Assembly (NCBI GenBank): GCA_043819795.1
Contig: JBDREN010000096.1
Location: 1 to 64,000 of the forward strand
DNA from: Elusimicrobiota bacterium
GTDB lineage: Bacteria; Elusimicrobiota; Elusimicrobia; UBA1565
DNA length: 64,000 bases
Direction: 5' to 3'
Shown: one piece after another, positions 4,643 to 64,000 of the stretch
How the letters are laid out: every line of letters starts with the position of its first letter
Position numbering within the stretch: position 1 is the stretch's first letter
Position numbers and translations under genes: made by a program
The notes under the pieces: generated by a model
Told to the model about the DNA's origin: nothing
Databases searched by the model: none
What the model saw: the letters and a program-made list of their open reading frames with translations, nothing else

Positions 4643-4926
4643 CTTGTCTCTCCCTAACGACAATCCCATTCACGCTTTACAGACGACCGCCGGCTTGAAT
4701 CCCGGCCACCCATATGTATAGCTGTAAACCGACTATCTGTCACGGACAAACTGCTGACAGGGATGTAAAAATAACATTTATAAAATAAGCAGCTATTTTT
4801 CGTGTCAGCGAAATCTCCCAGTTGTCGGCGGGTTGATCGCAGGAGGGCGGCGTCCCGGTCGCGCGATGCGGGGCGCAATCAGCGCCGGAGATCCCGGGAG
4901 ACGCGGTCTGGATGCCGAACCAAGGG

Positions 4927-21337: not shown

Positions 21338-22805
21338 TTACGTCGGGCCCTGCGCCTTCAGGAAGCTGCCGGGCGGATACCTGCTGACCAACGACTGGGG
21401 CCGCCATCATTGGCTCTCGCCCGGCGAGTTCGAGCGCTATTTCTCCGGCCGGCTGGCGAAGGGCTCCGCGTCGTGGAGGGAGCTCCGCGACAAGGGCTTC
21501 CTGCGGGACCGCCTGGATTTCCCCGCCCTGGCCGGGAGCTACGCCCGGAAGAACGCCTTCCTCTGGAGCGGTCCCAGACTTCACATCGCGGTGCTTACGC
21601 TGCGCTGCAACCATCGCTGCGCCTATTGCCAGGCCAGCGCGGCCGGACCCAAGGGCGCCGGGCGCGACATGACGGAAGACACCGCCCGGCGCGTGACGGA
21701 ATACGTCTTCGAGAGTCCCGCTCAGGAGCTGACCATCGAGTTCCAGGGGGGCGAGCCCCTGATGAACTGGCGTGCCTTGGAGACCATCGTCCGGTACGGG
21801 GGGGAGCTGGCGGCCGCGTCCGGCCGCAAGCTCCGCCTGGCCTTGGTGTCGAACCTCAGCCTGCTCGACGACCGCCGGCTCGAGTTCCTGATGGAGCATA
21901 AGGTCAGCGTCTGCACCTCCCTGGACGGGCCGGCGGCGCTCCACGACAGGAACCGGCCCTATCCCGGGGGCAGCGGCCACGCCGTCGTCGAGCGCTGGCT
22001 GAGGACGATGGCCCGGCGCTACCCGGACCGCGCGGCCGAGCGCCACCCGCGGCCCAACGCCCTGCTCACCGTGACCCGACGCTCGCTTCCCCTGGCCGAG
22101 GAGATCGTCGACGAGTACGCGCGTCTCGGCCTGCCCGGGATCTTCGTGCGCCCGCTCACTCCCATCGGAACGGCGCGCAGGAGCCGGGCGATCATCGGGT
22201 ATTCCACGGCCGAGTTCCTGGAGTTCTACGGGCGCTGCCTGGACCGCGTCCTGGAGCTCAACCGGGCGGGCACGCCCCTGCGCGAGCGGGGCGCGGCCAT
22301 GCTGCTGACGAAGATCCTGAAGGGATGGGACCCCGGGTACACGGATCTTCGCTCGCCCTGCGGGGCGGGGCTCGGCCAGCTCGCCTACAACTACGACGGG
22401 GATATCTATACCTGCGACGAGGGCCGCATGCTCTCGGAGGAGGGCGACCGGCTCTTCCGCCTCGGCAGCGTCTTCGACACGCCCTATGAGCGCGCCCTGC
22501 GCCATCCGACCGTCAAGGCCTGCGCGGTCGCCTCGCACCTCGAGGACCAGCCGGTGTGCTCGGGCTGCGCCTACAAGCCCTTCTGCGGCGTCTGTCCGGT
22601 GTACAACTACGTGACGCAGGACACGATATGGGGCAGGATGCCGACCAGCGAGCGCTGCGCCCTCTACAAGGGCGTCTTCGACCTTATCTTCGAGCGGCTG
22701 CGCGATCCCGGGACGCGCCGGATCTTCGAGGACTGGGCGAGGGGTCCGGCGTCCGGCGGGGCGGACGGCGCCGATGAGAATCATGGCGAGCCCCATGCCG
22801 GATAG
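21294..22805 (+). CDS. hxsB: His-Xaa-Ser system radical SAM/SPASM maturase HxsB-like
   Basis: GYLLTND.G N-terminal domain, GPRLHIAVLTLRCNHRCAYCQAS, IEFQGGEPL, CTSLDGP..LHD.NR, DLRSPCGAGLGQLAYNYDGDIYTCDEGRM, SPASM CSGCAYKPFCGVCPV. Confidence 0.88.
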   Translation: MPSRLRSLVRKKLPDYVGPCAFRKLPGGYLLTNDWGRHHWLSPGEFERYFSGRLAKGSASWRELRDKGFLRDRLDFPALAGSYARKNAFLWSGPRLHIAVLTLRCNHRCAYCQASAAGPKGAGRDMTEDTARRVTEYVFESPAQELTIEFQGGEPLMNWRALETIVRYGGELAAASGRKLRLALVSNLSLLDDRRLEFLMEHKVSVCTSLDGPAALHDRNRPYPGGSGHAVVERWLRTMARRYPDRAAERHPRPNALLTVTRRSLPLAEEIVDEYARLGLPGIFVRPLTPIGTARRSRAIIGYSTAEFLEFYGRCLDRVLELNRAGTPLRERGAAMLLTKILKGWDPGYTDLRSPCGAGLGQLAYNYDGDIYTCDEGRMLSEEGDRLFRLGSVFDTPYERALRHPTVKACAVASHLEDQPVCSGCAYKPFCGVCPVYNYVTQDTIWGRMPTSERCALYKGVFDLIFERLRDPGTRRIFEDWARGPASGGADGADENHGEPHAG

Positions 22806-23994
22806 CAGCCTCGTCCCCGACGACGTCCTCGAGCAGACGCGCTGCCTGGACATCTCCCCGAGCAACGCCTGCAACGCCCGCTGCCTGTTCTGCTCCCAGG
22901 ACGACGGCGACCGGGAGATGGGGCGGCTGGACCCGGCCGCCACGGCCCGCCACATCTACTGGGCTTTCCGGAACGGCTACCGGCGGCTCGGGCTCTCGGG
23001 AGGGGAGCCCACTCTTCTCCCCGAGCTCCCGCGGCTGATACGCTTCGCCCGGAAAGTGGGCTTCCACTCCATCCGGCTGCAGACCAACGGGATCCGTCTG
23101 GCGGACGCCTCCTACGCCCAACGGCTGGTCGAGGCCGGCTTGAGCACGGTCCGCTTCTCGGTGCACGGGCACGAGGCCGGGCTTCATGACGGCCTCGTCG
23201 GGATCCCGGGCGCGTTCAAGAGCGCGCTGAGCGCGATCGGGAACATGCGGCGCCTGCGATGCCGGCTCGGGCTCAACATCGTCCTCAACGCGGACAACCA
23301 CGCGTTCCTGCCGGAGTTCTTCGAGCTGTTCCTGCGCCGCCTCGAGATCACGAATTTCATGGTGATCTATCCACTCTATGACGGGAACATGGGCCGGGAG
23401 GCGGACCGCATGGGCTTCCGGCTCAGCGAGGCGCTCCCGAGCCTCGAGAAGGCCTTCCGCCTCTTCGAGGAAGAGGGCCTCGAGCCGCCTTTGCTGCTCC
23501 ATTTCACCCCGTGCCTGCTGCCGGGCTACGAGTCGCGCATGCTCGGCTGGTACCGCTTCGAGGCGCGCGTCGTGGAGCCGGACGGCCGCGGCAAGGACCT
23601 CGACGAGGCCGTGCGGTCCCGCAAGCTCAGGCCTTCCTCCTGCGAGGGCTGCGCCTACCGGCCCCGCTGCCCGGGGGTGGACCGCGGATATCTCGATCGC
23701 TACGGCGCGGCCGAGTTCCGGCCCCTGGCGCAGCGCGCCCACGCGCGGACGCGGCCCCCGAGCGACGACCCCCGGCGGCGCATCCTGACCGAGAACGAAC
23801 GCTGCGTGCTCGGGATCCTCTCGACGGGGCCGCGTCCGACCGACGACCTGCTCTCGGCCGCCGTGGACACTCCGCTGTGCCAGGACTGCCGGGGCGGGCC
23901 CGCGGTCCTGCAGGCGGCGGAGCGGCTCGCCCGCATGGGCCGGATCCGGCGCTCCTGGAGCGGCGGGAAGTACCTTTGGACGCCCCGGACCTGA
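22795..23994 (+). CDS. Radical SAM protein (HxsC-like) with C-terminal winged-helix-like domain
   Basis: CNARCLFC, SGGEPT, LQTNG, FTPCLL, CEGCAYRPRCPG. C-terminal ~65 aa with LCQDC. Start 22774 or 22795. Confidence 0.85.
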   Translation: MPDSSLVPDDVLEQTRCLDISPSNACNARCLFCSQDDGDREMGRLDPAATARHIYWAFRNGYRRLGLSGGEPTLLPELPRLIRFARKVGFHSIRLQTNGIRLADASYAQRLVEAGLSTVRFSVHGHEAGLHDGLVGIPGAFKSALSAIGNMRRLRCRLGLNIVLNADNHAFLPEFFELFLRRLEITNFMVIYPLYDGNMGREADRMGFRLSEALPSLEKAFRLFEEEGLEPPLLLHFTPCLLPGYESRMLGWYRFEARVVEPDGRGKDLDEAVRSRKLRPSSCEGCAYRPRCPGVDRGYLDRYGAAEFRPLAQRAHARTRPPSDDPRRRILTENERCVLGILSTGPRPTDDLLSAAVDTPLCQDCRGGPAVLQAAERLARMGRIRRSWSGGKYLWTPRT

Positions 23995-24366
23995 CGGCTT
24001 TCACTCCTCCGCCCGCCTGTCGGAACGGTGGCTTTCCCTGCCGTAAAATTATACTGTACGTAAGGTGATGCCGGGGTCAGTCCCCGTCGTCAGGCTGAGG
24101 CGTCAGCCCCCTCTTTCGACTCCATTGTGCGGCTTCCCCCCGAGACCAGGCTTGATGCGGAAAGAACGGCGGACGTTGCGATGAAAAACAGGATATTTTT
24201 TGGTTAGAGACTCGGCCTTGCGGCCATGCTGGACGCGGAATAATTTGCCAAAATAGGCGTTCGGGCCGGCCCGTTCCGGGGGAGGCTCGTTCGTCCGAAG
24301 AACCATCCATGGGAAACAAGAGATCGGCGTACGGCGGGAAGGGTCCGGCCGCCCGGGGAGGCTCGG

Positions 24367-25239
24367 ATGCCTGACGTCCCCGTTTGGCCGGCCTGCGACC
24401 AGGAGTGCCTCTACTGCTCGAACCCGGCGGGCGATTATCGCCGGCGCACGGCCGAGCATTCCTTCCCGGCTCTGGTCCGGCGTCTGGTGCGCTACAGGGC
24501 CGGCGAGGAGAGCTTCGCCAAGTTCAACGACGCGCGGGACAACCTTACCCTCACCGGGGGGGAGCCCACGCTGCATCCGCAGTTCTTGCGTCTGCTCGCC
24601 GCGGCCCGGAAGGGTTTCCCCTACGCCGATCTGAGGCTGTTGACCCACGGCAGGCGCTTCGCGCTGCGGGATTTCGCGCGCCGGACGCTGGACGCGGCGG
24701 GCTCGCCCTGCGAGGTGGCGGTGAACCTCGTCGGCGCGGAGCGCGGGATCGAGGAGGCCGCGGCGGGAGTGGAGAACCTGCTCGGGCTCCGCGGGCCCGG
24801 GCAGCGCGTGGTCATCCGGGTCGTCCTCACCCGCCCCCAGGTCCGGGGCCTGCCCCGCTTGGCGGGGACGCTCTTGCGACGCCTGGCCGGGATCGACCGG
24901 CTGGAGCTGGTCTTTATGGAGATGGAGGGACGGGCCGAGCTGAACATCGGCGTGCTGGGCCTGCGGATGGGCGAGTGCGCGGCCGCGCTCGACTCCATGT
25001 ACGGCGTCCTGCGCCGCTTCCGGGAGTTCCGTCTCTACCACTTCCCCCTCTGCGTGTTGCCGGAGCGGCTCAGGGCCCATGCCTGGAGCACGCTCGACCC
25101 CGCGAAGGTGGTCCACGCATTCGTCTGTAAGGACTGCCGCCTGCGGCCCGGCTGCGTCGGGATCCATAAGTCGTACGCGCGGCGGATGGGCGTCGCGGAG
25201 TTCCGGCCGCCCGCGCCCGCGGAGCTTGTCGCCGCTTAG
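24367..25239 (+). CDS. Radical SAM protein (HxsC-like)
   Basis: CDQECLYCSNP, LTGGEPTLHP, LYHFPLCVL, CKDCRLRPGCVG. Confidence 0.85.
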   Translation: MPDVPVWPACDQECLYCSNPAGDYRRRTAEHSFPALVRRLVRYRAGEESFAKFNDARDNLTLTGGEPTLHPQFLRLLAAARKGFPYADLRLLTHGRRFALRDFARRTLDAAGSPCEVAVNLVGAERGIEEAAAGVENLLGLRGPGQRVVIRVVLTRPQVRGLPRLAGTLLRRLAGIDRLELVFMEMEGRAELNIGVLGLRMGECAAALDSMYGVLRRFREFRLYHFPLCVLPERLRAHAWSTLDPAKVVHAFVCKDCRLRPGCVGIHKSYARRMGVAEFRPPAPAELVAA

Positions 25240-25249
25240 GAGTATTTTC

Positions 25250-26224
25250 GTGCTTGAGAAGACGGACGACCTTTCCTGGTACGCGCGCAAGGCGGACGGC
25301 CTGCGCAGGGGGATCGCCGTCCCGGCCGCCGGTGAGGACGGAGCCCGCGCGGACAGGGTGGCCGCGCTCTTGGACGAGCTCCGGCGCGGGGGCATACGCG
25401 GCTCCGTCGAGGAGCGCACGCTCTATACCCGGCGCCTGCCTGCCGGATGCCGCGGCTGCCTGGCCGGCAAGGGGACCAACCTCTACGTGACCGGGCTGTG
25501 CACGCGGGACTGCTATTTCTGCTTCAACGCCAAGCCGCGCGCCGACGAGATCGTCGCGCACGGGATCCGGATCCGCGAGCCCGAGGAGGCGGGGGAGATC
25601 GTCTCCCGTTTCGGATTGCGCAGCGTGGGGATCAGCGGGGGGGAGCCGCTGCTCTTCCCGGAGCGGGTGATGCGCGTCGTCCGGACGCTGCGCACGTTGC
25701 CCGAGAGGATTTGGATCGACCTCTACACCAACGGCGACCGCGCCGACGACGACGTCCTGCGCGGTCTCCGGGAGGCGGGGCTCGACGCGGTGCGCTTCAA
25801 CCTGGTCGCCAACGGATTCGATACGGGGCCCGTGGAGCGGGCGCTGCGCTATTTCGACGGGACGGCCGTGGAGGTCCCTGTCGTCCCGGACCGGATGCGG
25901 GAGCTCGAGGAGATGGCGCTGGAGCTCGACCGGCTCGGGGTCCCCTATCTCAATATCCACGAGCTCTTCGCCTGCCGGGAGAACGACCTTCGCGTATCCG
26001 GGCGGGGCCACTCGGCGGAGGAGGCCGGACGAGAGTCGGCGCTGTCGTGGAGCCCGGTGACGGAGGGGGAGGAGGCCGCGCTGCGGCTGCTTCTCTTCGC
26101 GCTCAAGAACACGGATCGGCTCTCGGTCTACTACTGCTCCTGCCGCACCCAGGAGACGATCAGCCGCAGGGGCCTGCGCAGAAGGCGCGGGCTCGCCGCG
26201 GGCGCCCGGGAGGTCCTTTCGTGA
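25250..26224 (+). CDS. Radical SAM protein, COG2108-like (uncharacterised)
   Basis: LPAGCRGCLAG preceding YVTGLCTRDCYFC, ISGGEPL, LYTNG, GLDAVRFN, LNIHEL, YYCS. AGGAG RBS before GTG 25250. Confidence 0.82.
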   Translation: MLEKTDDLSWYARKADGLRRGIAVPAAGEDGARADRVAALLDELRRGGIRGSVEERTLYTRRLPAGCRGCLAGKGTNLYVTGLCTRDCYFCFNAKPRADEIVAHGIRIREPEEAGEIVSRFGLRSVGISGGEPLLFPERVMRVVRTLRTLPERIWIDLYTNGDRADDDVLRGLREAGLDAVRFNLVANGFDTGPVERALRYFDGTAVEVPVVPDRMRELEEMALELDRLGVPYLNIHELFACRENDLRVSGRGHSAEEAGRESALSWSPVTEGEEAALRLLLFALKNTDRLSVYYCSCRTQETISRRGLRRRRGLAAGAREVLS

Positions 26225-27153
26225 GGACCTGGGACGCGGTGGTGGCGGGCGGCGGCCCGGCCAGCCTGTCGGCGGGCTTCTACCTTTCGAGGGCCGGGTT
26301 CCGGGTCCTGCTCGTCGAGCGCGACCGTATCGGGGGTAAGCTGGCCAGGCTTCCGATGGTGCGCAACTATCCCGGGTTCCCGGACGGGATCAAGGGAAGC
26401 CTTCTCGCCCGGCGGATGGCGCTGCAGGCCGAGCGTCACGGCCTGAGCGTGGCGCGGGGGGAGGTCTCCGCCATCGAGCCGCGGGGAGAAGGCCTTCGCC
26501 TGCGCTTCGCGCCCGCGCGTGGGCGCGTCGGCGCGTCGGGGGTCTCTTGCCGCGCCGTGATCGTGGCCACGGGATCGGATTTTCTGCCGCTGGGGCTTCC
26601 CGGTGAGGACGCCTTCCGCGGGCGGGGCCTCTTCCACGCCGCGTTCGGGGATGCGGCGCGCTTCGCGGGAAAGACCGTGGGAGTCGTCGGCGGCGGGGAG
26701 GCCGCCGCCCATCAGGCCCTGGCCCTGGCCGAGCACGCGCGCCGGGTCTTCCTGTTCGCGCGCGGCCGCAAGCTCGCCGCGATCGGACCGCTCCGGGAGG
26801 GCGTCCGGCGCCATCCCCGCATCGTGCCGCGATGGGGGACGGTGATAGGCGCCCTGGAGGGAAACGGCTCGCTCTCGGGCGTCTCCTGGGCGCGGACGTG
26901 CCCCGCCTCCGGGAGGGCGAAGGGCCGGTCGCGGACCGAGCCGCTCGACGCTCTTTTCGTGCTGGTGGGCCAGCGCCCGAGCCTGCCCGAAGTCCGGATC
27001 CGGGCAAGTGACCGTCGCCGAAACGGCGTTTTTGTCGCCGGGGACGCCGACGCCGGGAACTTCCGGCAGGCCGCCATCGCGGCGGCCGACGGCCTGGCGC
27101 GCGCGATGGAGTGCGAGCGCTATTTGAAGAACCGCCGGAGGGCCGCTTCATGA
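26221..27153 (+). CDS. Thioredoxin-reductase-like FAD/NAD(P) oxidoreductase lacking the CxxC motif
   Basis: GGGPASLSA, NYPGF, IVATGS, LGLPGE..F.GRG, VVGGG, GVFVAGD. HAAFGD replaces YCATCD. GTG overlaps the upstream TGA. Confidence 0.82.
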   Translation: MRTWDAVVAGGGPASLSAGFYLSRAGFRVLLVERDRIGGKLARLPMVRNYPGFPDGIKGSLLARRMALQAERHGLSVARGEVSAIEPRGEGLRLRFAPARGRVGASGVSCRAVIVATGSDFLPLGLPGEDAFRGRGLFHAAFGDAARFAGKTVGVVGGGEAAAHQALALAEHARRVFLFARGRKLAAIGPLREGVRRHPRIVPRWGTVIGALEGNGSLSGVSWARTCPASGRAKGRSRTEPLDALFVLVGQRPSLPEVRIRASDRRRNGVFVAGDADAGNFRQAAIAAADGLARAMECERYLKNRRRAAS

Positions 27154-28106
27154 TGACCTCGATCCTAGATATCCAACGCGTCCGGGAGGTCCCGGGCATC
27201 GCCACCCTGTACACGGCCTCGCGGGCGACCGACCCCGACCTGTGGTTCGAGTTCCTCGACGCCGTGGACCCGGGAACGCCGCGCGAGCGCAAATGGGTGA
27301 TCATGGTGTCGACGCAGTTCGGATGCGCGGTCGGCTGCCCGATGTGCGACGTGGGGACCATCGGCTACAACGGCAACCTCGCCACCGAGGAGATGCTCAG
27401 CCAGATCCGGTTCGCGCTCTCGGCCCACCCGGAGACCAACCCGGCCGAGGTCCCGAAGCTCAAGGTGCACTTCGCACGCATGGGCGAGCCGAGCCTCAAC
27501 CCGGCGGTGCTCAAGTGCATCGAGCACCTGGGCCGGGCGGCCCGGCTGCCGGGGCTGATGCCGAGCCTCTCCACCGTGGCGCCGCGCTGCGGCGTCGTGC
27601 GGGACTTCTTCTCCGAGCTGAGCGTCCTCAAGGACCGCTATTTCGGCGCCGGGCGCTTCCAGCTGCAGTTCTCGGTGCATTCCACCGACGAGGAGGCCCG
27701 CCGGGCGTTGATCCCCGTGCGCAAGTGGGGCCTGGAGGAGATCGCCGCCTTCGGGGCCCGCTGGTGGCGGCCCGGGGACCGCCGCATCACCCTGAACTTC
27801 GCCCTGGCCGAAGGCATCCCGTGTTCCCCGGACGTCGTCGAGAGGCATTTCTCTCCCGAGCGCTTTCTCCTCAAGTTCACGCCGATCCATCCGACCGAAC
27901 GGGCCGACCGCAACAAGCTGACCCGGGTGTGGTTCGAGACGCCCGAGGGCATCGCGCGCGTGACGGGCGAGCTGGAGCGCCGCGGCTTCAGGACGATCGT
28001 GAATCCCGCCTGGCCGGAAGAGGTCTTCGGGAGCGTCAGCTGCGGACAGCTGGCCGGGAGCGCGCTGCGCGCCGAGCGGGCCAAAGCGAGGGAGGCGGTT
28101 TGCTGA
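27150..28106 (+). CDS. RlmN/Cfr-like radical SAM protein (atypical)
   Basis: VSTQFGCAVGCPMCD, RMGEP, LQFSVH, C-terminal SCGQL. Lacks the N-terminal domain and the resolving Cys of RlmN. Confidence 0.8.
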   Translation: MMTSILDIQRVREVPGIATLYTASRATDPDLWFEFLDAVDPGTPRERKWVIMVSTQFGCAVGCPMCDVGTIGYNGNLATEEMLSQIRFALSAHPETNPAEVPKLKVHFARMGEPSLNPAVLKCIEHLGRAARLPGLMPSLSTVAPRCGVVRDFFSELSVLKDRYFGAGRFQLQFSVHSTDEEARRALIPVRKWGLEEIAAFGARWWRPGDRRITLNFALAEGIPCSPDVVERHFSPERFLLKFTPIHPTERADRNKLTRVWFETPEGIARVTGELERRGFRTIVNPAWPEEVFGSVSCGQLAGSALRAERAKAREAVC

Positions 28107-50728: not shown

Positions 50729-50927
50729 ACTGGAGTTCCTGAGCTAAATTTTAGAAAAAACCTTTAATAATAATACACTTCGCCGATTCTTGGTTCGCAT
50801 TTATAGTCAGTAACGCTCCGTCGAGAAATCGTATTTTGCGTAGTCACTCCAGTGAAGCCGGTTTTTCATTGATCTGACGATATTCCAAGCATATTTTCAA
50901 AATCGAGCTCAGGAACTCCAGTCTAGA
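50724..50927. mobile_element. 204-bp AT-rich MITE with perfect 22-bp terminal inverted repeats
   Basis: TCTAGACTGGAGTTCCTGAGCT (50724-50745) / AGCTCAGGAACTCCAGTCTAGA (50906-50927). CTAG at both ends; the left CTAG contains the MATE stop codon. Confidence 0.8.
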
Positions 50928-50936
50928 GCACCGCTA

Positions 50937-51040
50937 AGGTGTAACTTGTTAACTGACTACGGGCGCCTATTTTGCGACGGCGTGGACGCCAAGGCAGTTT
51001 CGATCCTCCTACTTAGTTAACAAAGTTAACACCTGACGCC
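50937..51040. repeat. REPIN-like ~100-bp inverted-repeat element
   Basis: AGGTGTAACTTGTTAACT at left; AGTTAACAAAGTTAACACCTGACGCC at right. The right end reads GGCGTCAGG on the minus strand, as in the RAYT IRs. Confidence 0.6.
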
Positions 51041-51789
51041 TATTTTTTCTCGATAGTGGTCGTCGGGGACTCGAATGCGCTATTGAGCATCTCGGGTGGG
51101 ATGTCGGGAGGGTGCGAAAGAGCGCTGGGATTGGGCGACTCGGGGTCCCGGGCGGGCACGCCGATCACGGGGGAATGGTCGATCGGCTCGAACCCGCCGT
51201 CGGGCGCGCCCGGCGGAAGGGCGGGAACCTCCAGGGTCTGGGTCATGATCTTCGTGGCTTCTCCGCTCTTGATGTCCACGCTGCGCAGCTCGTAGAGGAA
51301 GCTTTCCTCGATGGCCGGCTCAGCCTCCGCGTCCTCGGCGTTCTCTTCGCCCTGCGCGCCTTCCGGAGGCGGGGCGGCCGCCGCTTTCTCGCTCGCGGCG
51401 GCTTTCTCCTTCTCGGTCTCCTTGGGCAGCGCGGACTCGACCATGTAGAGCAGCTGTTTTTCGTCCGGCGTCCACGTCAGCCCAATGGCGTTGTCCTTGA
51501 CGAGCGTGCGCGTACTCCCTTTCTTGAGGTCCACAAGGACGATGCCTTTGTCCCGCATCGCGAACGCCAGGTACTTGCCGCCCGGAGAGGGGACGATCGT
51601 CGCGGCCCTTCCGCCGCTGTCGGTCCCCACGCCGATTTCCAGGGGGGTGGTCTTCCCGCTGCGGGCGTCGACGAGGAAATCCTTGCCGTTCGGGAACTGG
51701 ACCAGCGTGTAGCGGGAGGCGGTCGCGGCCGAGGAGGCTAGGCAAGCCGCCAGGAAAGCGGCGGCCACCGGCGAGCTGAGTCGGTTCAT
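51040..51789 (-). CDS. Secreted protein with TolB/WD40-like beta-propeller blades and acidic/Pro-rich tail
   Basis: Signal peptide, PSPGGKYLAF, LTWTPDEKQLLY, VDIKSGEAT. AGGAGA RBS. Confidence 0.7.
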   Translation of the reverse strand: MNRLSSPVAAAFLAACLASSAATASRYTLVQFPNGKDFLVDARSGKTTPLEIGVGTDSGGRAATIVPSPGGKYLAFAMRDKGIVLVDLKKGSTRTLVKDNAIGLTWTPDEKQLLYMVESALPKETEKEKAAASEKAAAAPPPEGAQGEENAEDAEAEPAIEESFLYELRSVDIKSGEATKIMTQTLEVPALPPGAPDGGFEPIDHSPVIGVPARDPESPNPSALSHPPDIPPEMLNSAFESPTTTIEKK

Positions 51790-51822: not shown

Positions 51823-52869
51823 TTAGCAGCGCGAATCGGAATACGCGTACGCCGTGCAGTCCGTCCAGCCGAAGATCACGGTGTAGCCGTAGCGTTTGCC
51901 CTCGATGTAGCGGCACTTGGGAGGATTGGCGGCCCCCGCCCACCCGCCCGGGGTCGTGCAACTGGGCTCGTTGTTGACGGCGGATCCCCATCGGTCGTAG
52001 ACCGCGTAGCAGGTCCGCGGCACCCAGTTCTTGAGCCTCGGGCTCGAGCAGGTCGGCAGGGGGGCCTGCCCTCCCGGTGGGCCCGGCGGGCCCTGCGGGC
52101 CCCGCGGGCCCGTGGGGCCGAGGGACCCCTGCCCGCATCTGGGTCCCACGTCTCCCGCGGGGCCGTCCGGGCCCTTCGGCCCTTTGCCTCCACGGATGCC
52201 CGGACCGCCCGGAATGGGCGTGAGCGAGACGGCCACTTCCTTGCCGTCCGGTCCCTTGTAGTACAGCCTGCCGTCCGACCTGGCGTAGAGCACCACGTGG
52301 CCGGGGTCCGGCCTGGTCGGCGGCAGCATCTTGCTGAAGAACACCGCCCCTCCGATGTCGATGGAGCCGTCGGCGCCCTTCCGGACGAAGGCGTCCGGCT
52401 CGTCCCCCTGAAAGAGCGATGCGTTGACGCTGTAGGGCAGGGTACCCAGCCGCTTGCGGGGCGAAAGGATGGCGCCCCCGAGCTCGATCTCGAGCCAAGT
52501 GTCCGGCCCGCTGAAGATGGCGGGGCTCCACCCGCTTACGGACCCGAGGCGGACCGAGAAGAGGCCGCTCGTCACATGGACGTTGAACTGTGTCTCCTCC
52601 CACAGCTTCTGTCCGAGAGTCTCGTTGTCGTAGACGCGGAAGGTGAGGTCCCGCAGCCCGCTGAGCGGCTCCCCCGAGGGATCGCTCAGGATGCCCTCGT
52701 AGTTGAGGACGCGGGGAATCTCGGCCTGGGAAGGCGACTCGGAGAGGACGACGATCGCGGCGCCCGCCAACGAACCGCCCGAGAAGAACGCCGGCCACGG
52801 GCCCACGGGAGAAGCCGCGAGGACGGCCGAGAGGCCGAGCCTAAGATGGGTCCCCAGATTCTTCCTCAT
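51823..52869 (-). CDS. Secreted collagen-like protein, paralogue C
   Basis: [12 protein letters not shown]-domain, LWEETQ, LYYK neck, 16 triplets (one Gly->Cys), Cys-rich C-domain with SCTT.GGWAG. Confidence 0.85.
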
Positions 52870-52880
52870 GGCGGAGCGTC

Positions 52881-53891
52881 TCAGCATTTTCCTTCCGAGT
52901 AGCTGTTGGCGGTGCATGTAGTCGTCCGCCAGTGGACCGTGTATCCGTTCCTATAGCCGTCAGTGTATGTGCACGTCGGAGGCACGGCGGTGCCCGCCCA
53001 GCCGGCGTTCGTCGTGCAGCTGGCCAAATGCGCGTGCAATACGGCACTCCCCCACTGGGTGAGGCTCGCCCTGCAGGTGCGCGCTCTCCAATTGACCAAC
53101 TTGTAATTAGACGGCGTACAGGTCTGGGCCGCCGGCGCGGACGCCGTCCCTCCCATGGGCCCCCGGGGTCCCTGGAGTCCCCGGGATCCGGTCAAGCCGA
53201 TATCCCCGTCGTGGCCCTTGGGCCCCGTATCCCCCCTCGGTCCCCTGGCTCCCATATCGCCCGGCGGCCCGGGCAGGCCTTTGGGGCCCTGGGCTCCCGG
53301 CGACGAGATGTCGGCTATCTGGCCCAGATCGTTCTTATAGTAGAGCACTCCGTCGGCCACGTAGAGGACGAGCTTCCCGTAGTCCGGCTTGGCCGGCACG
53401 GCGATCTCGGGAAGGAACAGCCCCCCGGGCTCGAATTCGGCGAGGCCGTCGTCGTTGCGCAGCATGAAGGCGTCGAGCCCGAGCCCGCCGAAGAGCTCCG
53501 AGTTCGCGGCGTACGGGCTCGTGACCAGACGCTTGCGCGGCGACAGGACCGACCCGTCCATCTCGATCTCCAGCCACGCGGTGTCGGCCGCGAACACGGC
53601 CGGGCTCCAACTCGCGACGGCTCCCAGCCGGACCGCGAAGATGCCGTTCGCGACCGGGACGTTCGCCTGGGTCTCCTCCCACAGCTTCTGCCCGAACGCT
53701 TGGGCGTCGTAGATGCGGAAGGTCAGGTCCTTGAGCCCGTTGACCGGCGCGCCGGCCGTCGCGGCCAGCAGGCCCTGATAGTTGATGAGCCGCGGCACCT
53801 CGGCTCGGGCGGTGGACATCAGATAGGCGGAGGCGGCCACGACGAGCAATGGGCCTGCTATCCAAAATCCGGTTCCGCGACGGGTCATCAT
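52881..53891 (-). CDS. Secreted collagen-like protein, paralogue B
   Basis: Signal peptide, EVPRLINYQG.L, LWEETQ, LYYKND.G, 16-17 Gly-X-Y triplets, C-domain SCTTNAGWAG. GAGGAG RBS. Confidence 0.85.
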   Translation of the reverse strand: MMTRRGTGFWIAGPLLVVAASAYLMSTARAEVPRLINYQGLLAATAGAPVNGLKDLTFRIYDAQAFGQKLWEETQANVPVANGIFAVRLGAVASWSPAVFAADTAWLEIEMDGSVLSPRKRLVTSPYAANSELFGGLGLDAFMLRNDDGLAEFEPGGLFLPEIAVPAKPDYGKLVLYVADGVLYYKNDLGQIADISSPGAQGPKGLPGPPGDMGARGPRGDTGPKGHDGDIGLTGSRGLQGPRGPMGGTASAPAAQTCTPSNYKLVNWRARTCRASLTQWGSAVLHAHLASCTTNAGWAGTAVPPTCTYTDGYRNGYTVHWRTTTCTANSYSEGKC

Positions 53892-53916
53892 CGGTCGTTT
53901 CTCCTCACATAAGGCA

Positions 53917-54885
53917 TCAGCGCGCAGCGCAAGTCTTCCAAGACCACTGGACGGTATACGCCGAAATCCTGGTCCCCTCCACGTAGCGGCAGGTCGGGGC
54001 GCCCGCATTCCCGGCCCATCCGCCGCTCGTCGTGCAGCTGGGCTTGAGCGAACGGGCCGCCCCCCACTGGCTGATGCTCGAGGTGCAGGTCGTCGGCCTA
54101 TAGCGCGTTAACTCGCTGGAGTAGCTCTGGCGCGGGGGCGGCGGCGCGAGCGGACCCGGGGCGCCGGGCGGCCCCTGCGGCCCGGGATACCCCGGCGGTC
54201 CGACGTCGCCTCTCGGGCCCGGGGATCCGGTCAAGCCCTGGGCTCCGGCCAGCCCCGCCGGCCCCGTGTCTCCGGGTTCGCCGCGCGCGCCGGCGCGGGC
54301 CTCGGTCGCCAGATCGGTCTCCAGCCCGTCGTCGTTCTTGAAGTACAGCCGCCCGTCCCGGGCGTAGAGCACTCCAAGGCCCGTCGTCGGCGTGTCCGGA
54401 GGCTCCGCCATGTTCTGGAAAACGATCCCGCCCCCCACGTCCACGGAACCGTCGGGTGCCGGACGGTAGAATACGCTGATCTCCTTGCCCCCGATGAGCG
54501 CCGCGTTGGCGGCGTAGGGGACGGCGACCAGCCTCTTGCGCGGCGTGAAGGCCGATCCGCCGATCTCGATCTCCAGAAAAGAGTCGCCGCCGGCGAATAT
54601 CGCCGGGCTCCACCCGTTCGCTGCGCCGAGCCGCACCGAGAAGAGCCCCCGCAGGATCTGGACGTTCTGCTGGGTCTCCTCCCAGAGCTTGTTCCCGAGC
54701 ACCTCGGCGTCGTAGATCCGGAAGGTGATGTCCCGCAACCCCTGGACGGGCGCCCCCGATGCGTCGCTCAGCCTGCCTTGATACGGGATGAGGCTGGGCA
54801 CCTCGGCCCGGGCGGAGCCCAGACCGGCGGGAGCAAGGGCGAGGATGACGCCCAGGCTTGCTTTTCGGGACACGGCTCCAATCAT
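53917..54885 (-). CDS. Secreted collagen-like protein, paralogue A
   Basis: Signal peptide, [26 protein letters not shown], 16 Gly-X-Y triplets, C-domain [10 protein letters not shown]. Confidence 0.85.
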
Positions 54886-55048: not shown

Positions 55049-55207
55049 GGACAAACTCTTGACAAAGGATAAGAAAAAGCGGTTATTCTAAAGCGATAAT
55101 TTTTTTTTGTCAGGTCGGAGGGCCAAAAAAAGGGGCAATGGACAGGGAACGTCCCCCAAAGATATGCTCTCCGGCCCAGGCCTGGAGGTCCGGCTTCTTC
55201 CTCTATA

Positions 55208-58200
55208 TTACCTCACGACCGCGAACTTTCCGGCTTTGCGGACGCTCGCGTCGCCCGATTTCTCCGCCACGATGGTGTAGAGATACACTCCGCTGGGGAT
55301 ATGCCCCTGCCAGGCGTATTCGTACGCGTACTTCGGCCCGCTCCCGTCGTCGATCACGGGCGGCGTGGATTCCATCGTCGTCTGGTGCACCTGCTGGCCC
55401 GCGATGTTGTATATCCGGACCGTCACCTTGTCCGCGATCCCCACCGCCACGTGGATCGTGGGCACCGCACCGCCCACCGCCGGGTTCGGGAACACGTAGA
55501 GGTCGCGCAGGGTGAAGGTCGGGTCCGCGCCTTCGGGCGACAGGGCCGTGGCTGAGGCCGGCGTGGCGTCTCCATCCCCGTCCGCGCCGTACGTATCCGG
55601 AGCCTCATTGGAGAGCACGATCGAGTTCCCGTTCATCCCCATATACCCCGTGAACAGGCGCCCGCCGAACTGCGAGCCGCCGCCGAACGCCATCGTCGCC
55701 GTCGGAGCGTACAGGATCGCCGCCATGCGCCCATTGCTCTTGATGTCGATACCGGCTGCATGGTTGACGAAGATCATCAGGTCACCCGGCCTCTCCGCGC
55801 CGGTGTTCACGTTCGCCGAGTTGATGGAGATGGCCCCTTCCACCAGGATGCCCACCTCCCCCGAGACCCGAAGCTCCGCGCCGCCGCTCAGCTTGATGCC
55901 CTTAAGCAGATAGGTCCCGGCCGGCAGCGTCACGATCTGGCTGAGGACCTCCAGCTCACCCTTCTTGTTGATGTACCCCGCGATCGGGTTGTTCGGGTCC
56001 GTCGCTAGGTTGTGCGCCACCACGTACTCTCTGACGGCCGCGAGGTCGAAGGGCGCCGGATCGAGCGGCAGCTCCCCGCCCGTCTCCGTGATGGCGCCCG
56101 TGATCGTGCTGTTCTCGTTCTTCTCGACCGTCGGAGCCGTGGCGTCCCCGTCCAACATCACGGTCCCGTCGAGCGACACCGGGCCGTTGGAGATCATGTT
56201 GCCCAGGAAGTCCACCGTCCCGCCGAACACCACCTCGCCCGTCTTGCCCACTCCGGCGGTCTGGTTGATGTTCATCACGCCGCCCACGTTGAACTCCACC
56301 GTACGCTCCTCTTCGGTGTTGTTCACCTGGTCCACGCTCCAGTAGGTCACCGTATGCACGCCCTCCGCCAGCGTGAACGGCGTCAGGTACAGGACCTTGG
56401 GCGCTCCGTCGATCCGGTACTGGATCTGCTTGACGCCCGAGGCCACCCCGCCCACGGCCGGGGCCAGCGGGTCCTCCGCCGTCAGGCTCAGCTCCGTCTC
56501 GGTCCCGATGAAGATCTGCCCGAACTGATACCTCACCGGCTCCGCGACGTGCAGCTCCGACACCGGCGGGGTGTGGTCCACGCCGATCGTGATGAACTTG
56601 TGGCCTTCCTGGATCGGGCCGAGCCGGTAGCCTTCCTCGTTGCCCCGCTTGTCCACGCTGAAGTACTCCAACTGGTGCGGCCCCTCCTGCGACAGGTTGA
56701 AGGCCACCACGTCGTGCTCCACGTTCTGGCGGATGAACAGAGCCTCGGGCCCGTCGATCGTCACGTCCCTGTAGAACGTCCACTGCACGTCGAAGACGAC
56801 CCCGCCGTCATCCGGGTCCACCGCGCTCAGCGAGTTCATCGCACCCGCGTCCAGGAACACGTCCACCTCCATCGGAGTGCCCTTCACCGTGCTCGAGCTG
56901 CCCGAGTGCGCGATCTCGGTCGCCGGCGGCTCCACGTCCACCGTCACATCCAGGGAATCGGAGGTGGCCCCGTCGTCGTCGTCGGTGATCGTGGCCTTCA
57001 TGACGAAGTGGCCGTTGTTCTTGTACTGGTGCAGGCGCGAGACCGTGCCGTCCGCGCCCAAGGTCGAGCCCGGCGGGCCGAAGGGCGCCTCGCTGAGCTC
57101 GGGCGCGTACACGGGCTCGATGACGCCGTCTCCCCAATCGATCATGGCCGGACTGTGGGTGTCCAGGGTCCCCTTGTCGTTGAACATGATCGCGTCCGCC
57201 GACACCAGTTGGTCCGGGCCGATGGGCACGCTGGCCTGCTGGCCGTCGGGCAGGCGGACGCTCATGAATCGCGGGGTGATGTGCCCGCCGATGTGGATGT
57301 AGCCGTTGGCGGCCGCGGTGTTGTCGGACCCTGCGTCGACCGTGGGCGCCACGTTGTTCACCGTGATGACCAAAGTGTCGCAGGTCTCGGCCAGATCGTC
57401 GTCCTTCACGCAGGTCGTGACCGTGTAGTCTCCGTTATCGGCGTAGACGTGCTCGCCGGCGATGGTCCCGTTGGCCCCGGCCGTGTTGCCGGGCGGTCCG
57501 AACGGAGCCTCGGCAACCGCGCCGATGTCTATGGCCGTGCCATCGCCCCAGCTGATGGTGGCCGTATGGGTGTCGAGCGTGCCCAGATCATTGAAGGTGG
57601 ACGGCGCCAGGCTGATCGTGACGCCCTCCTCCACCGTCAGGTCGGCGCCCGCGTCGATCGTCGGCGTGACGTTGGTGACCGTCATCGTCAGGGTGTCGTC
57701 TATGGTCGCGCCGTCGTCGTCGGTCACCGTCACCCTCACCGTGTAGGTCCCGTTGTCGGCGTACACGTGGCTGCCGGCGATCGAGCCGTTCGCCCCGGCC
57801 GTGTTGCCGGGCGGTCCGAAGGGCGCCTCGGCAACCGCGCCGATGTCTATGGCCGTGCCATCGCCCCAGCTGATGGTGGCCGTATGGGTGTCGAGCGTGC
57901 CCAGGTCGGCGAACGCGGACAGCGCGAGGCTGACCGCGCCGGCCTGGGCGCAGGTCTGGCCGTGGCGCGGATAGGCGATCTCCCAATTGGCGGCCACGGT
58001 ATCCGACGGTACCGCTCCCAGATTCCCGCCGTAGGACGCCCCGTAGTACACCACGTCGACGGCATCGTGCACGGGCTGAGGCACCGCGGGCTGCAATCCC
58101 GCGTCCGTCTGGGTGTCGGCCACGGTCGAGACGCTGCCCGATCCCGCGGGAGAGGTGAACGTGCACGTCGCGGAATCCCGCCCCCCGCCGAGATGCGTGA

Positions 58201-61200
58201 CCGTTTGGACCACCCTCATCGGCTCGCCCCAGACGCCCGAGAAGGCGGGGCCTCCGATCTTCAAGCCGAGGTTCGGGAACACTCCGGACTGGAGCGCCGG
58301 GACGGCGGCAAACGCCCCGCCCGGAGTCGCCGGACCCGGAGCGCTGAGGTCGGCGGTTATGACCAGGACGCAGTTCCTCAAGTTGAGCGAACCCTGCAAA
58401 GAGCCCTGCGCCGTTCCCGCGAAATGCGTGTCTCCGGAGATTGGCGTCAGGTCCACGCTGTAGGTGACGCTCTCGCCCGGATCCAGCCGACCAGAAGGCA
58501 AGGTCAACGCCTCGGAGGCGAAATCCCCCTGCACCGTGCCTTCCGTGCATCGCCTGGCGTCGATCGCCCCGTTGCCGTCGGTGTCGACTGGGACGCACGC
58601 CGGACTGGTCACCACCCAAGGCGCCGTCACCGGTATGCGGCCGCCGACGACGCACTCTCCCTCATCCACCGTGATGTCCGCGCCCGCGTCGATCGTCGGC
58701 GTGACGTTGATGACCGTCACCGTCAGGGTGTCGTCTATGGTCGCCCCGTCGTCGTCGGTCACCGTCACCGTCACGGTGTAGATCCCGTTGTCCGCGTATA
58801 TGTGGGAGCCCGCGACCGTCCCGCTGACTCCCGCGGGATCCCCGGGGGGGCCGAACGGAGCCTCGCTCACCGCCCCCGTCTCCGTCCCCGTACCGTCGCC
58901 CCAGTTGATGGTCGCCGTGTGCGTGTCGAGCGTGCCGAGGTCGTTGAACGTCGCCGGAGCCAGGCTGACGGTCGTTCCCTCGTTCACCGTCTGGGCCGCG
59001 CCGGCGGCCACCGTCGGCGCCTCGTTGCCGACCGTGACGATCAGCGTGTCGCAGGTCTCGAGGTTCTCGTCGTCCTTGACGCAGACCTCGAGCGTATAGG
59101 TCCCGTCGTCGGCGTAGACGTGGCTGCCCAAGGTGACGGTCCCGTCGAGCCCGGCCACATCGCCCGGCGGCCCGAACGGCGTCTCGATGACGAGGCACGG
59201 GCAACTCCCTCCCGATCCGTCGCCCCAGTCAACGGTGGCGGTGTGGGTGTCCATCGTGCCTTTGTCGTTGAAGAGCGCCGGATCGAGGGTGAGGGTCGCG
59301 CCCTCCTTGATCGTCTGGTCCGCGCCGGCGGCCACCGTCGGCGCCTCGTTGGTGACCGTGACGATCAGCGTGTCGCAGGTCTCGAGGTTCTCGTCGTCCA
59401 TGACGCAGACCTTGACCGTATAGGGCCCGTCGTCCGCGTACACGTGGCTGCCCAAGGTGACGGTCCCGTCGGCTCCGGCCGCGTCGCCCGGCGGGCCGAA
59501 CGGCGCCTCGATCACCAGGCACGGGCAACTCCCTCCCGAGCCGTCGCCCCAGTCGAGGGTGGCGGTGTGGGTGTCCAGCGTGCCTTTGTCGTTGAAGAGC
59601 GCCGGATCGAGGGTGAGGGTCGCGCCCTCGGCGATCGTCTGGTCCGCGCCCGCGGTCACGGTGGGCGCGAAGTTCGCGACGGTGTTGGTCCCGGAATCGC
59701 AGACGGGCGACCCCCCGCTCTCCGTGACGCAGACGGTGACGGGGTAGCTGCCGTCGTCGGCATAGACGTGCTCGCCGGAGACGGTCCCGCCCGCCTGGTT
59801 CACGACCGCCGCCTCGGCCCCCGCCCCTTCGCCCCAATCGATGGTGGCGGTGTGGGTGTCCCCGGGGTTCGGATCCGAGAACGGCACGCTGAGGCTCAGC
59901 AGAGAGCCCTCGTTGCCCGACAGGCCGGTCACCGGGCCCAGCGTGGGCGGCTGGTTGCAGTCCGGGTCCGGCGTCGTCGCGACGTCCCGGCACCAAACCT
60001 CCGCGGGACACGCCCCGTCCGCGTCGCAGTCGCAGTCGTCGCCCGAGCCGTCCGAGTCCGCGTCGGCCTGCCCGGCGTTGGCGACGGTCACGCAGTTGTC
60101 GCAGAGATCTCCCGCTCCATCGCTGTCCCCATCCGCCTGATTGGGGTTAGAGACGGCCGGGCAGTTGTCGCAGGCGTCTCCGATGCCGTCGCCCGGCCCG
60201 CTCGGCCCGAAGGCCTGCATCTCCAGGATCTGGACCCAGGTCCCGTACGAGGCCGTCACCAGGATCCTGAAGTAGCGCATGGGGGTCGGGCTGAACGACG
60301 CGTCGATCTCCCTCGTGCTGACGGGCGTGATCTGCGTCCAGTTGGCCCCGTCCGTGGAGTACTCCAGCACGCCGCTGTGGACATAATCGTCCGGACGGAC
60401 GTACCCTCCCGTCAGGCTCGCTTGGACGATGTAGATGTGGTCGATGGTGTAGTTCTGGCCCAGGTCCACCTGGAAATAATCCCCCGAGTTCTGGCCTGTG
60501 GTGGTCCAATACATTGTCGCCATATCGCCGTCCGTCGCGTAGGCCTCGAGGAAGTTCGAGTAATGCGCCACATTCGACGTGAACGGCTTGCTCAGCGCGA
60601 CATTCACGGGCACGGCGGCGTGCTGGAGCACGAGCCTGGGTCTCAGGGCCGCATCGCTGGAGTCGGAGCTGTGCGCCATGGCTATATGCCAATTATTCGT
60701 ATCCTCCACCACCAGGACCATACCGTGGTTGGCGGTGCCCCCGAGCCATTCGCCGACCAAGCTCGTGACGTTCCAACTGTACCAGCCGGGCTGGGCGCCT
60801 ACGGTCCCGGGAGCGTACTGCGTCACCGCGTCATACGTGGGCTGATTGGCGCCCGTGATGGTCATCTCATCCCATGCGGAGGTGACCTTGTACACGCCGA
60901 CCGGCCTGGTGCCCCATCCGGGTTGAGGGATGTTGTCGATATGGAGCTCGAGCGTCGCCGAGACAAGGTCGCCGGGCGCCAGTTGCGGCAGGTTGAACTC
61001 GATATACGTGCGCCTCTCGAACTGCGCCTGGCCGTTCTTCCTCAGATGGAGCTCCTCACGCGCTCCATTGTTCTGCGTGTCGGACCAGCCGTAGGGCCCC
61101 GTCACGTCCTGGCCGTTCGCGTCGTAGCCGTGGTCGTCATAGATGAACACGAAGGCGTCCTTCCCTTGGGCCGGGCCCGGCTGGAGCACGGTCTGCACGA

Positions 61201-64000
61201 CGCCGCCACCGCCGCCCGAGCCGTCCGTATCGGCCTGATCCGGATTCGCAACGCTCGCGCAGTTGTCGCAGGCGTCCCCTGTCCCGTCGCCGTCCGCATC
61301 CAGCTGACCCACGTTCGCCGTATCAGGGCAATTGTCGCACGCATCGCCTATGCCGTCCGCGTCCGCGTCCTCCTGGCCGGGGTTGGCCGCCGCCGGACAA
61401 TTGTCGCCGCTGTCGCAGACACCGTCGCTGTCCGCGTCAGCGCAGGAGGCGATCGTTATCTCGACCTTGGGCGTCGCGGCATTGCCGCCCGACGGCGAGG
61501 CATATCCCGTGAAGAACAGATCGATCGTCCCGGGCGCGCCGGTGGGGACGACCGTCCATGTCTGCTCGCAACTCTGCCCGGTCTGCATGCTGGCCAGGCA
61601 GGGTACGTCGGCCTTCGTCTGCGGGTTCGGCGATGTCGTGTAGAACGGCGTGTCTCCGGGGTTCGTGCTGATCTGGGACCCGCTTCCTCCGCCGTCTCCG
61701 TTCAGCGTGGCCGCCACGTCGCTGCAGGGGCCCGCGATGCAGTCGACCTTCGTCTTGAACGTGAACGATTGGCTCTGCACGACGCTCAACGGCCCCGTGG
61801 GGGCGACCAGGAAAGCCGACATGTTCTCGCACGCGTCTCCCGTCCCATCGCCGTCCGCGTCCGCCTGGCCCGGGTTAGCCACGGCCGGACAGTTGTCGCA
61901 AGCGTCCCCAATCCCGTCGCTGTCCGCGTCCAGCTGGCCCGCGTTCGCGGCATTGGCGCAGTTGTCGCATGCGTCGCCCAAGCCGTCCGAGTCCGCGTCC
62001 GCCTGACCGGGATTGGCGTCAGCCGGACAGTTGTCCTCGCCGTCGCAGAGACCGTCGCTGTCCGCGTCAAGGCAGGAGGCGATCGTTATCTCGACCTTGG
62101 GCGTCGCGGTATCCCCGCCCGACGTCGAGTCATATGCCGTGAAGAACAGATCGGTCGTCCCGATCGCGCCGGTGGGGACGACCGTCCATGTCTGCTCGCA
62201 GCTGTCTCCGTTCTGCATGTTGGCCAGGCAGGGCAGGTCGGCCTTGGTCTGCGGGTTCGGCGAGGTCGTATAGAAGGGCGTCCCCGCGTTCATGGGCACC
62301 ACGCCCTTGGAGGTGGAAACCACCGTTATCGTGACCGTCCCAGGACCCGAGTTCACCCCACCCGCATTGTCCGGGTTGGCTCCCGAGTTATAGGAGCCGC
62401 CGCCTCCGCCGCTACCCCAAGGGCTGTAGTTGTTTCCTCCACCGCCGCCGTTGTATCCCGCGCCGCCGCCTCCCGCGCCCGTATTGTCGGAACCGCCCCC
62501 GCCTCCACCGAAGCCTCCGTCGGCGCCCGTATAGCCGGAGTCATGAGTGAACAGGCCTCCGACGGCTCCGTTTCTGGGGGCCTGACCTCCCTCGCCTTTG
62601 GGGTTCCTTATGGTCAAGCCGTCTTGCCCGTCCGTCAACCAGCCACCGCCACCGCCGCCTGTGGACAGATTGCCCACATTGTATCCGCCATCTCCGCCAT
62701 TGCCGCCGGTTCCGCCATTGCCCGACCCGGACCCACTACCCATTGTGGGAGTCCCGCTTCCGGAGCCGTCCCCGCCGGAACTGCCTTCAGCCTGTCCGCC
62801 GCCTCCTGCCGCGACAATAAGCGGATGGCTGGCGGAGGCATCCTTATAAACATAGCTAGCCCCTCCCCCTCCCCCGCAATATCCGGACCCCTGGGTTGTC
62901 ACTCCTCCCCGCTGGCCTGGGATGATGTACAGAGTCTCGCCGGCATTCAAATGGAATTCCCCTTTAGCCTTCGCTCCCAGGCCGCCGTTGGCGCCGCCGC
63001 CCTTGGCGCCCAAAGCTTCGATCGTATAGATCCCGTTTGTCGGGGCAGTCCATTGCTGGATCCCGCCGGCCACAGTCACTTGCGCGTCCAGCGTCGTCCC
63101 CGTGTAGGCGGCGTCGCACTGAGCTTGCGCCGGGCCATTCTTCCCAGTCTGCCCGCAATCTGTGAACCCATATTCCGTCGGAGGCGGATCCAGAGTGGCC
63201 GTCACATCGCCGCAAGCGCCCGCGACGCAGTCCACTCTCGTCTTGACCGTGAACGGCTGGCTTTGCAGGACGCTCAACGGCGCCGTGGGGGCGACCAGGA
63301 AAGCCGCCAGATTCTCGCACGCGTCCCCCGTCCCATCGCCGTCCGAGTCCGCCTGGCTCGGGTTGGAGACGCCCGGGCAATTGTCGCAGGGATCCCCCGC
63401 CCCGTCGCCGTCGGCGTCCGCCTGGCCCGGATCGGCGATATCGGGACACGTATCGCAGGCGTCGCCCGCCCCGTCTCCGTCCGCGTCTTCCTGGCCCGGG
63501 TTGGCGACCGTCGGACAGTTATCGCCGACGTCGGCGCACACGTTGTCGCCGTCGGTCTCATCGCAGTAGATGGTTATCTCCACCCTGTCCGTGGCGACGG
63601 CCCCGCTCAGCGTCGCCTCGTAGAAGGTGAAGAACTCGTGCGTTTCTCCCTGCGCGCCGGTCGCGACCACGCTCCATGTCTGGGTGCACGTCGCTTGGCC
63701 CTGCATGTTGCCCAGACAGGGCACGTCGGCCTTGGTCTGCGGGTTTTGCGAGGTCGTATAGAACGGCGTCCCCGCGTTCATGGGCACGACTCCCTTGCCC
63801 GTCCTCGTTATTGTGACCTTTCCATGCCCGCTGTTCGCGCCCGCCAGGTTGTCCTGGTTGATTCCATCATTATAAGAGCCGCCGCCGCCGGAGCCGCCGC
63901 CCGGACAAGACGATGAATTGCTGCCCGCCCCTCCGGAGTATCCCCCGCCGGCGCCGCCTGAACCGGAATACTCCCAGTTGCCGCCGCCGCCGCCAAAGCC
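55208..64000 (-). CDS. Giant secreted multidomain adhesin (>2900 aa, 5' end outside window)
   Basis: Frame stays open from 63787 into a further Gly-rich domain at the window end. Contains TSP3 repeats (DNCP..ANP.Q.D.D.DG.GDAC), Gly-rich ALK/LTK-like domains, a DNRLRE-like domain, an F5/8 discoidin, multiple PKD repeats (DWGDG, H.YADDG), OmpL47-like domains (YWSVD) and a C-terminal YVFPNP...SGVYLY...KFAVVR. Confidence 0.88.

Follow-up and report, generated by a model that had tools for sequence, protein, structure and literature searches.

Do three adjacent genes for collagen-like proteins encode three separate fibres, or the three chains of a single one? This question is raised by a locus on contig JBDREN010000096.1 of an Elusimicrobiota bacterium (GTDB Bacteria; Elusimicrobiota; Elusimicrobia; UBA1565; GenBank assembly GCA_043819795.1), of which positions 1–64,000 were analysed and are referred to here as the window. 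The genes occur on the minus strand and were designated A (53917–54885; 322 amino acids [aa]), B (52881–53891; 336 aa), and C (51823–52869; 348 aa). Based on their sequences and on those of their relatives, it is likely, though unproven, that A, B, and C assemble one-to-one as a single defined ABC heterotrimeric fibre (rough probability, 0.6), and the pattern behind this reading is itself real and well supported.

The three co-oriented paralogues share the architecture and motifs that had been described for them (48–52% pairwise identity between mature chains). Each consists of a leader resembling a signal peptide by inspection (residues 1–27 in A and 1–30 in B; long in C, where an alternative upstream ATG at 52917 is possible), an N-domain (A, residues 28–133, 54487–54804; B, 31–135, 53487–53801; C, 50–155, 52405–52722), a neck ending in LY(Y/F)K, a collagen stalk (A, 199–246, 54148–54291; B, 199–249, 53145–53297; C, 221–268, 52066–52209), a short linker, and a head (A, 255–322; B, 258–336; C, 274–348). 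The N-domains (105 residues) align without gaps at 58–62% identity, the necks are 34–48% identical, and the heads (70–80 residues) are 50–56% identical. The heads, which had been called Cys-rich, contain four cysteines in A and six each in B and C, A being without the first and last Cys of the other two.

The stalks are matched even more tightly than the original prediction had claimed, with 61 residues between the Lys of LY(Y/F)K and the last Gly in A, B, and C alike and the same Gly phase throughout. The predicted counts stand for A, with 16 uninterrupted Gly-X-Y triplets, and for C, with 16 triplet positions comprising eight triplets, Cys-Gly-Gln, and seven triplets (15 Gly-X-Y in phase); for B, the count is 17, with the extra triplet in phase at the neck end. 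In an alignment of the three chains the stalk is gapless, while the neck, linker, and head carry 1–5 gap columns. The X and Y residues are as divergent as had been proposed (in pairs of chains, agreement at only 2–6 of the 16 X positions and 3 of the 16 Y positions) and four-fold degenerate sites are near saturation (0.42–0.44 identical vs 0.39 expected by chance), which marks A, B, and C as old duplicates. Among the other collagen paralogues of the same genome, an imperfect null given their other heads and lower-complexity repeats, none of 30 pairs had equal stalks and two were within one triplet. Stalks in those paralogue families range from 9 to 62 triplets, and two neighbouring control collagens with 97% identical N-termini have stalks three triplets apart. 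The stalk match in A, B, and C is more than chance. With 2.9 Å per residue as the value for a collagen helix (PMC5902488), a 16-triplet stalk would form a triple helix ~14 nm in length. The TGC codon of Cys245 at a Gly position in C (52135–52137, minus strand) is one base away from a Gly codon and represents a putative substitution or an assembly error; a single DNA run that covers portions of both B and C shows no differences from them, the Cys245 site lying outside of its coverage. Because its stalk is interrupted, C scores below the cut-off for PF01391 (19.8 bits; cut-off, 27.2), with A (33.9 bits) and B (33.8 bits) above it. Many further secreted collagen-like proteins are encoded in the genome, at 3218–4669 of the window and by ~17 other genes; they make up at least three families, each with short N-terminal modules of its own and with stalks and heads that vary widely.

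No direct orthologues of the collagen triplet were identified in the collections searched. Matches to full-length A, B, and C were confined to the N-domain or the collagen, scans of genomes and viruses returned only weak partial N-domain matches, and a metagenome scan returned a single, spurious locus; therefore, the copy-number test was run on the N-domain family. The N-domains weakly match those of the mosaic adhesive trimers (MATs) of Bdellovibrio, surface fibres that are invariably trimeric, carry a conserved N-domain behind the signal peptide, and have swappable tips (PMC10769870). For NF053851 (Bdello_MAT_N), E-values were between 9e-7 (A, 28.8 bits) and 4e-6, with 27–29 bits against a cut-off of 60 and 66–73 of 162 positions covered. 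A predicted model of the N-domain of B is a beta-sandwich (predicted local distance difference test [pLDDT], 82–97 for mature-chain residues 1–90) for which a fold search recovered generic beta-sandwiches (best Z, 7.2; root-mean-square deviation, 3.6; 82 aligned) and no clear solved relative, and Foldseek gave no match at E 0.001. Similar domains are predicted at the start of S74, fibrinogen-like, and YadA-head proteins from several phyla, and other phyla with the N-domain include Omnitrophota, Myxococcota, Chloroflexota, and Bacteroidota. An S74-type paralogue is present in the window’s genome; A, B, and C themselves have no S74 domain and instead bear an orphan tip. In the window’s genome, AMIN-like or LysM-like proteins carry a fused, truncated version of a related domain (G000:C83:4872-9422 and C122:12804-13601), with similar partial matches in most genomes of the window’s family.

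The check proposed earlier was whether homologous loci always occur as triplets with equal repeat length, with loci of one, two, or four or more copies counting against the heterotrimer. This refutation applies in part: in the family as a whole singles prevail and pairs also occur. The triplets themselves are length-matched. Across 229 genomes of the phylum, the matches listed comprised 12 triplets and 10 pairs of adjacent genes, with no larger array; the same scope applies wherever these totals recur below. For the 17 genomes of the window’s family (86 matches, 13 of them excluded as partial hits on a related domain), the count was 38 singles, four adjacent pairs, nine triplets in eight genomes, and nothing larger. 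Further samples added two pairs and three separate triplets, the latter on one contig of a genome from another class (401/403/404, 517/523/517, and 766/761/758 aa), ruling out a restriction of triplets to the window’s family. In one of these samples 27 matches fell outside the listing; across the census, flanking sequence was obtained for a portion of the singles, and contigs were often short. The other-class triplets (G071:C2:74974-100408; L062, L063, L065, and L067) lie within 26 kb and have different shafts and heads, their nine N-domains form one clade, and one of the triplets has a weak C1q-domain match. A recheck for hidden copies beside weak singles and spaced pairs found none. One pair in the window’s genome (G000:C69:20934-24073; L055) has a second fibre gene apparently frameshifted soon after the N-domain, with its S74-type remainder continuing in another frame. 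As background, tandem paralogue arrays across the whole of the window’s genome consisted of 59 pairs, three triplets (including A/B/C), and three larger arrays (rough gene calls). Compared to this, the array sizes of the family (six triplet origins and nine pair origins) gave a Fisher p of ~4e-4, though this and the other p-values overstate the case because the genomes are related and fragmentary.

All 12 triplets are matched to within 4% in mature length, compared to three of the nine complete pairs, a difference with p = 0.0015 when loci are counted and p = 0.0097 when origins are counted. Members of a triplet are mostly 40–57% identical, with one triplet at 67–74%. In N-domain trees the triplets fall into six separate clades, two of which hold two and three triplets with unlike shafts and heads, so that six to nine triplet origins can be counted. 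A collagen stalk is present only in the window’s triplet, and most clades have non-collagen shafts; the triplet habit is not tied to collagen but belongs to the N-domain fibre family, and the general phenomenon is a triplicated MAT-like fibre of which the collagen is one instance. Two other triplets have weak, below-cut-off head matches to C1q or BclA_C. One triplet type is shared by three genomes of a single genus, and in all three its genes group by position (1, 2, and 3) into as many supported orthologous clades, with orthologues (56–72% identical) closer than paralogues (50–55%). At one chromosomal site, a single gene of 477 aa in the window’s genome (C82) corresponds to three genes of 477–482 aa in a relative, and such a one-versus-three switch at the same site was found for three fibre types in all. 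Further, gene junctions abut or overlap in 14 of 14 cases from seven triplets, suggesting coupled, equal expression.

Next to the fibre genes of the family there is usually a gene whose product ends in a type IX secretion system (T9SS)-like C-terminal domain, and often a gene for a PorV-family barrel. The partner protein encoded by the former typically opens with three pseudo-repeats ~19–20 residues apart in a segment of 55 residues, and 16 of 29 such segments beat their own shuffles at p 0.05. The segments form the mature N-termini of their proteins (L037:9161-9340, L042:4384-4563, L055:7201-7395, and 26 similar). All five genes with the segment in the window’s genome adjoin a fibre gene (one via a two-contig overlap), and such a partner was detected beside 8 of the 12 triplets with a profile trained on these. 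We infer that one partner chain may bind one fibre trimer with one repeat per subunit, making the three-repeat neighbour a candidate anchor for MAT-like N-domains. PorV-family barrels are present in this lineage, outside of the Bacteroidota. The protein encoded upstream of A (55208–64000, minus strand) is a giant with PKD, TSP3, CBM96, and F5/8 domains and a T9SS-type C-terminal sorting domain (TIGR04183, 25.7 bits; cut-off, 23), a domain for which no match was found on A, B, or C. Its N-terminus is missing because the frame stays open to the contig end, which limits the three-repeat check at this locus, and no join was found between the truncated gene and any other contig. Including this one and ~17 other genes of the genome, the giant PKD/TSP3 surface proteins reach 6300 aa and have a nearly identical T9SS-like C-terminal domain in all members. 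A comparison to the Pam pilus was set aside, as PamT/PamR matches were weak and the preprint (PMC13278184) concerns a different system.

If A, B, and C do form an ABC heterotrimer, they would be made from one transcript and carried across the inner membrane by their leaders. The N-domains and necks could then trimerise, selecting one chain of each kind, and the three 16-triplet stalks would wind into the ~14 nm triple helix, in which the Gly-to-Cys of C would disturb one strand in three. The three unlike, disulfide-bonded heads would make up one asymmetric tip for a putative ligand. The N-domain trimer may be held at the surface by a partner exported via a PorV/T9SS-like route, and the three-fold pseudo-repeat of that partner, with one repeat per chain, could supply the asymmetry that lets three chains specialise. 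The fibre is likely surface-displayed and adhesive. An ABC fibre is favoured because the register is exact in chains with nearly saturated synonymous sites and no control pair has equal stalks; because on at least six occasions the family has given rise to sets of precisely three genes with matched lengths and never, among the matches listed, to a set of four; and because positional orthology is kept in one type, gene junctions abut, and MAT fibres are trimeric.

In addition to the overstated p-values, several results weigh against a defined ABC fibre. Singles predominate (38 of 51 loci in the window’s family) and pairs also occur, so three copies are not required by the family, and no triplets were found in 54 genomes of two sister families (111 matches, four adjacent pairs), which were searched at E 1e-12 with the narrower profile only, a cut that elsewhere hid members of three triplets. 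Positional orthology was not resolved for a triplet type common to two genera. Six single-copy fibres of one type are equally length-conserved (443–447 aa, 1–9 gap columns, 53–68% identity), such that for beta-type shafts a constant length has little weight by itself and the argument is borne by the collagen stalk and the count of three. Three of the nine complete pairs are length-matched, and at one site the copy number alternates between one and two; both observations fit two-plus-one heterotrimers or free mixing of chains. The three-repeat partner was undetected beside four of the 12 triplets, three of them from the other class and the fourth the A/B/C locus itself. Finally, a count of Lys/Arg–Asp/Glu pairs over 27 compositions, using an assumed pairing geometry, placed AAA first (6.0), the best ABC register fourth (4.5), and CCC last, and shuffles gave no ABC signal (p = 0.22–0.68); on this point the predicted heterotrimer loses ground, having gained it from the recurrent length-matched threes and positional orthology.

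The leading place of AAA in the charge-pair count is one of the points for three separate homotrimers (AAA, BBB, and CCC), in which case the genes would be a plain tandem family of adhesins that differ in the ligands they prefer and may all dock on a single partner or need the same reach. Every domain is present in each chain, prokaryotic collagen-like proteins have been described as homotrimers (PMC8968730), singles are the commonest state, and single-copy fibres can keep their length. This explanation predicts more pairs than triplets, some arrays of four, drifting stalks, and heads swapped as in dispersed paralogues and in the tips of MATs (PMC10769870), yet all 12 triplets have one architecture from end to end, and a CCC homotrimer would have the Gly-to-Cys break in all three strands along with the worst charge count; we consider it unlikely. 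Also improbable is the free mixing of co-expressed chains (AAA, AAB, ABC, and so on), by which three genes would generate combinatorial tips. Mixing would force equal stalks because out-of-register chains would spoil each other’s trimers, accounting for the register and the length match, including that of the matched pairs, as well as for the absent ABC charge code; cross-assembly is plausible with N-domains of 58–62% identity, and such combinations have been raised as a possibility for Pasteuria collagens (PMC7743900). It leaves the stop at three (12 triplets, 10 pairs, none larger among the matches listed) unexplained. A merely historical match, through recent triplication or gene conversion without selection on number or length, or through switchable cassettes with one copy expressed at a time, would give each triplet type its own clade, as concerted evolution does, and might suit the triplet at 67–74% identity, but is very improbable given near-saturated four-fold sites in A/B/C, positional orthologues closer than paralogues in one type, genes that abut behind one promoter-like site, and gene calls around the window’s triplet that include no recombinase.

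Among the closest known systems, the MAT fibres of Bdellovibrio bacteriovorus, a family further marked by surface display and glycan binding, are like the locus in the leader, the predicted beta-rich N-domain, and the variable shaft and tip, the shaft being trimeric in MATs, and in the many paralogues per genome, some with an S74 chaperone; A, B, and C, with a variable tip and no S74, resemble the non-S74 type. The MAT N-domain spans ~130 aa right after the signal peptide, the position held by the predicted beta-sandwich in A, B, and C, but the match to NF053851 is far below its cut-off. Further, the MAT shaft is an intertwined trimeric beta-prism or beta-helix, unlike a collagen repeat, and for this reason A, B, and C were filed as MAT-like and not as members. 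MAT trimers are described as consisting of a single protein, and the main text of that report (PMC10769870) contains none of the terms heterotrimer, tandem, operon, or collagen.

The likeness to C1q that had been suggested holds as an analogy only, in the three tandem genes, short stalk, and one interrupted chain, and the locus is not a C1q homologue. No match to gC1q (PF00386) was found in the heads up to E 0.1, leaving homology limited to Gly-X-Y. A head profile compared to 1.84 billion representatives recovered only the window’s own proteins and two repetitive sequences, the head model was uninformative (pLDDT, 52; best fold-search Z, 2.7), and no usable Atlas match to the head fold was found. 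The kink of C1q arises from one-chain interruptions. In agreement with the background given in the original prediction, C1q is a heterotrimer from three tandem genes (PMC4774423); like A/B/C it has three homologous chains and a short collagen stem, the stem of C1q being kinked and its heterotrimeric head versatile in binding (PMC4774423, PMC5902488). The locus differs in having 16 triplets compared to ~26, heads of ~70–80 aa compared to ~140 (PMC5902488), a large N-terminal beta-sandwich, and no sign of an 18-chain bouquet. Overall, A, B, and C would work like a MAT fibre and, if the ABC reading holds, like C1q, with both memberships failing on defining features.

The known bacterial collagens Scl1/Scl2, BclA, and Lcl also place a Gly-X-Y stalk between non-collagen domains, but are described as homotrimers (PMC8968730), as had been stated for Scl1/2 and BclA. 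A, B, and C have other N- and C-domains and a stalk length fixed across three old paralogues; NCBIfam matches to this group are weak and limited to the stalk, with the streptococcal Scl1/Scl2 profiles at 20–33 bits compared to cut-offs of 325–400, and there is no LPXTG anchor. The proposed three-repeat partner resembles, by description only, F-ENA-3/F-Anchor-3 of Clostridia spore appendages, for which docking of a trimer onto three domains of a single anchor chain has been predicted (PMC12357932), though that trimer comprises three copies of one protein, with different folds and on a Gram-positive spore.

On the minus strand the giant PKD/TSP3 gene is followed by A, B, C, and a fourth co-oriented gene, D (51040–51789; 249 aa), with operon-like gaps of 25, 11, and 33 bases for A–B, B–C, and C–D. 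AGGAG precedes B and D, no terminator-like sites were found between A, B, C, and D, and a sigma-70-like match, CTGACA-17-TAGAAT (55085–55113, minus strand; 10/12, consensus match only), occurs 5′ of A. No recombinase genes were found among those called nearby. D is likely co-transcribed with A, B, and C. It is an orphan with a signal-peptide-like leader, part of what resembles a beta-propeller (weak matches), an insert rich in acidic residues, and a Pro-rich tail; a search for homologues of comparable length found none, and it could be an assembly or anchoring factor. Just 3′ of D is an AT-rich stretch (50730–50930) flanked by an inverted repeat (tctagactggagttcctgagct ... agctcaggaactccagtctaga). 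Elsewhere in the window, 20801–28106 contains a cluster resembling, by inspection, His-Xaa-Ser radical-SAM genes.

A mixed three-chain design has been described for animal collagens, and none was found demonstrated for a bacterial collagen or fibre in the literature covered, which included few subscription journals and main texts rather than supplements. As a wider proposal, put forward tentatively and with somewhat more doubt than acceptance, the phylum may have triplicated MAT-like homotrimers into obligate ABC fibres at least six times, such that the locus would encode a natural heterotrimeric collagen with its own chain-selecting N-domain, and one partner chain of three unlike repeats would anchor the trimer as the surface element of MAT-like N-domains. 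The anchor of the MAT N-domain remains unidentified in the description available (PMC10769870), and the three-repeat neighbour is a testable candidate for it. An ABC collagen from a bacterium, equipped with its own domain for selecting chains, would, if true, supply a recombinant tool. Further, matched single-gene and three-gene versions of one fibre occupy a shared chromosomal site in a number of independent lineages. With these, the transition from homomer to heteromer, the step that gave rise to C1q and to heterotrimeric collagens, can be tested directly on small secreted proteins.

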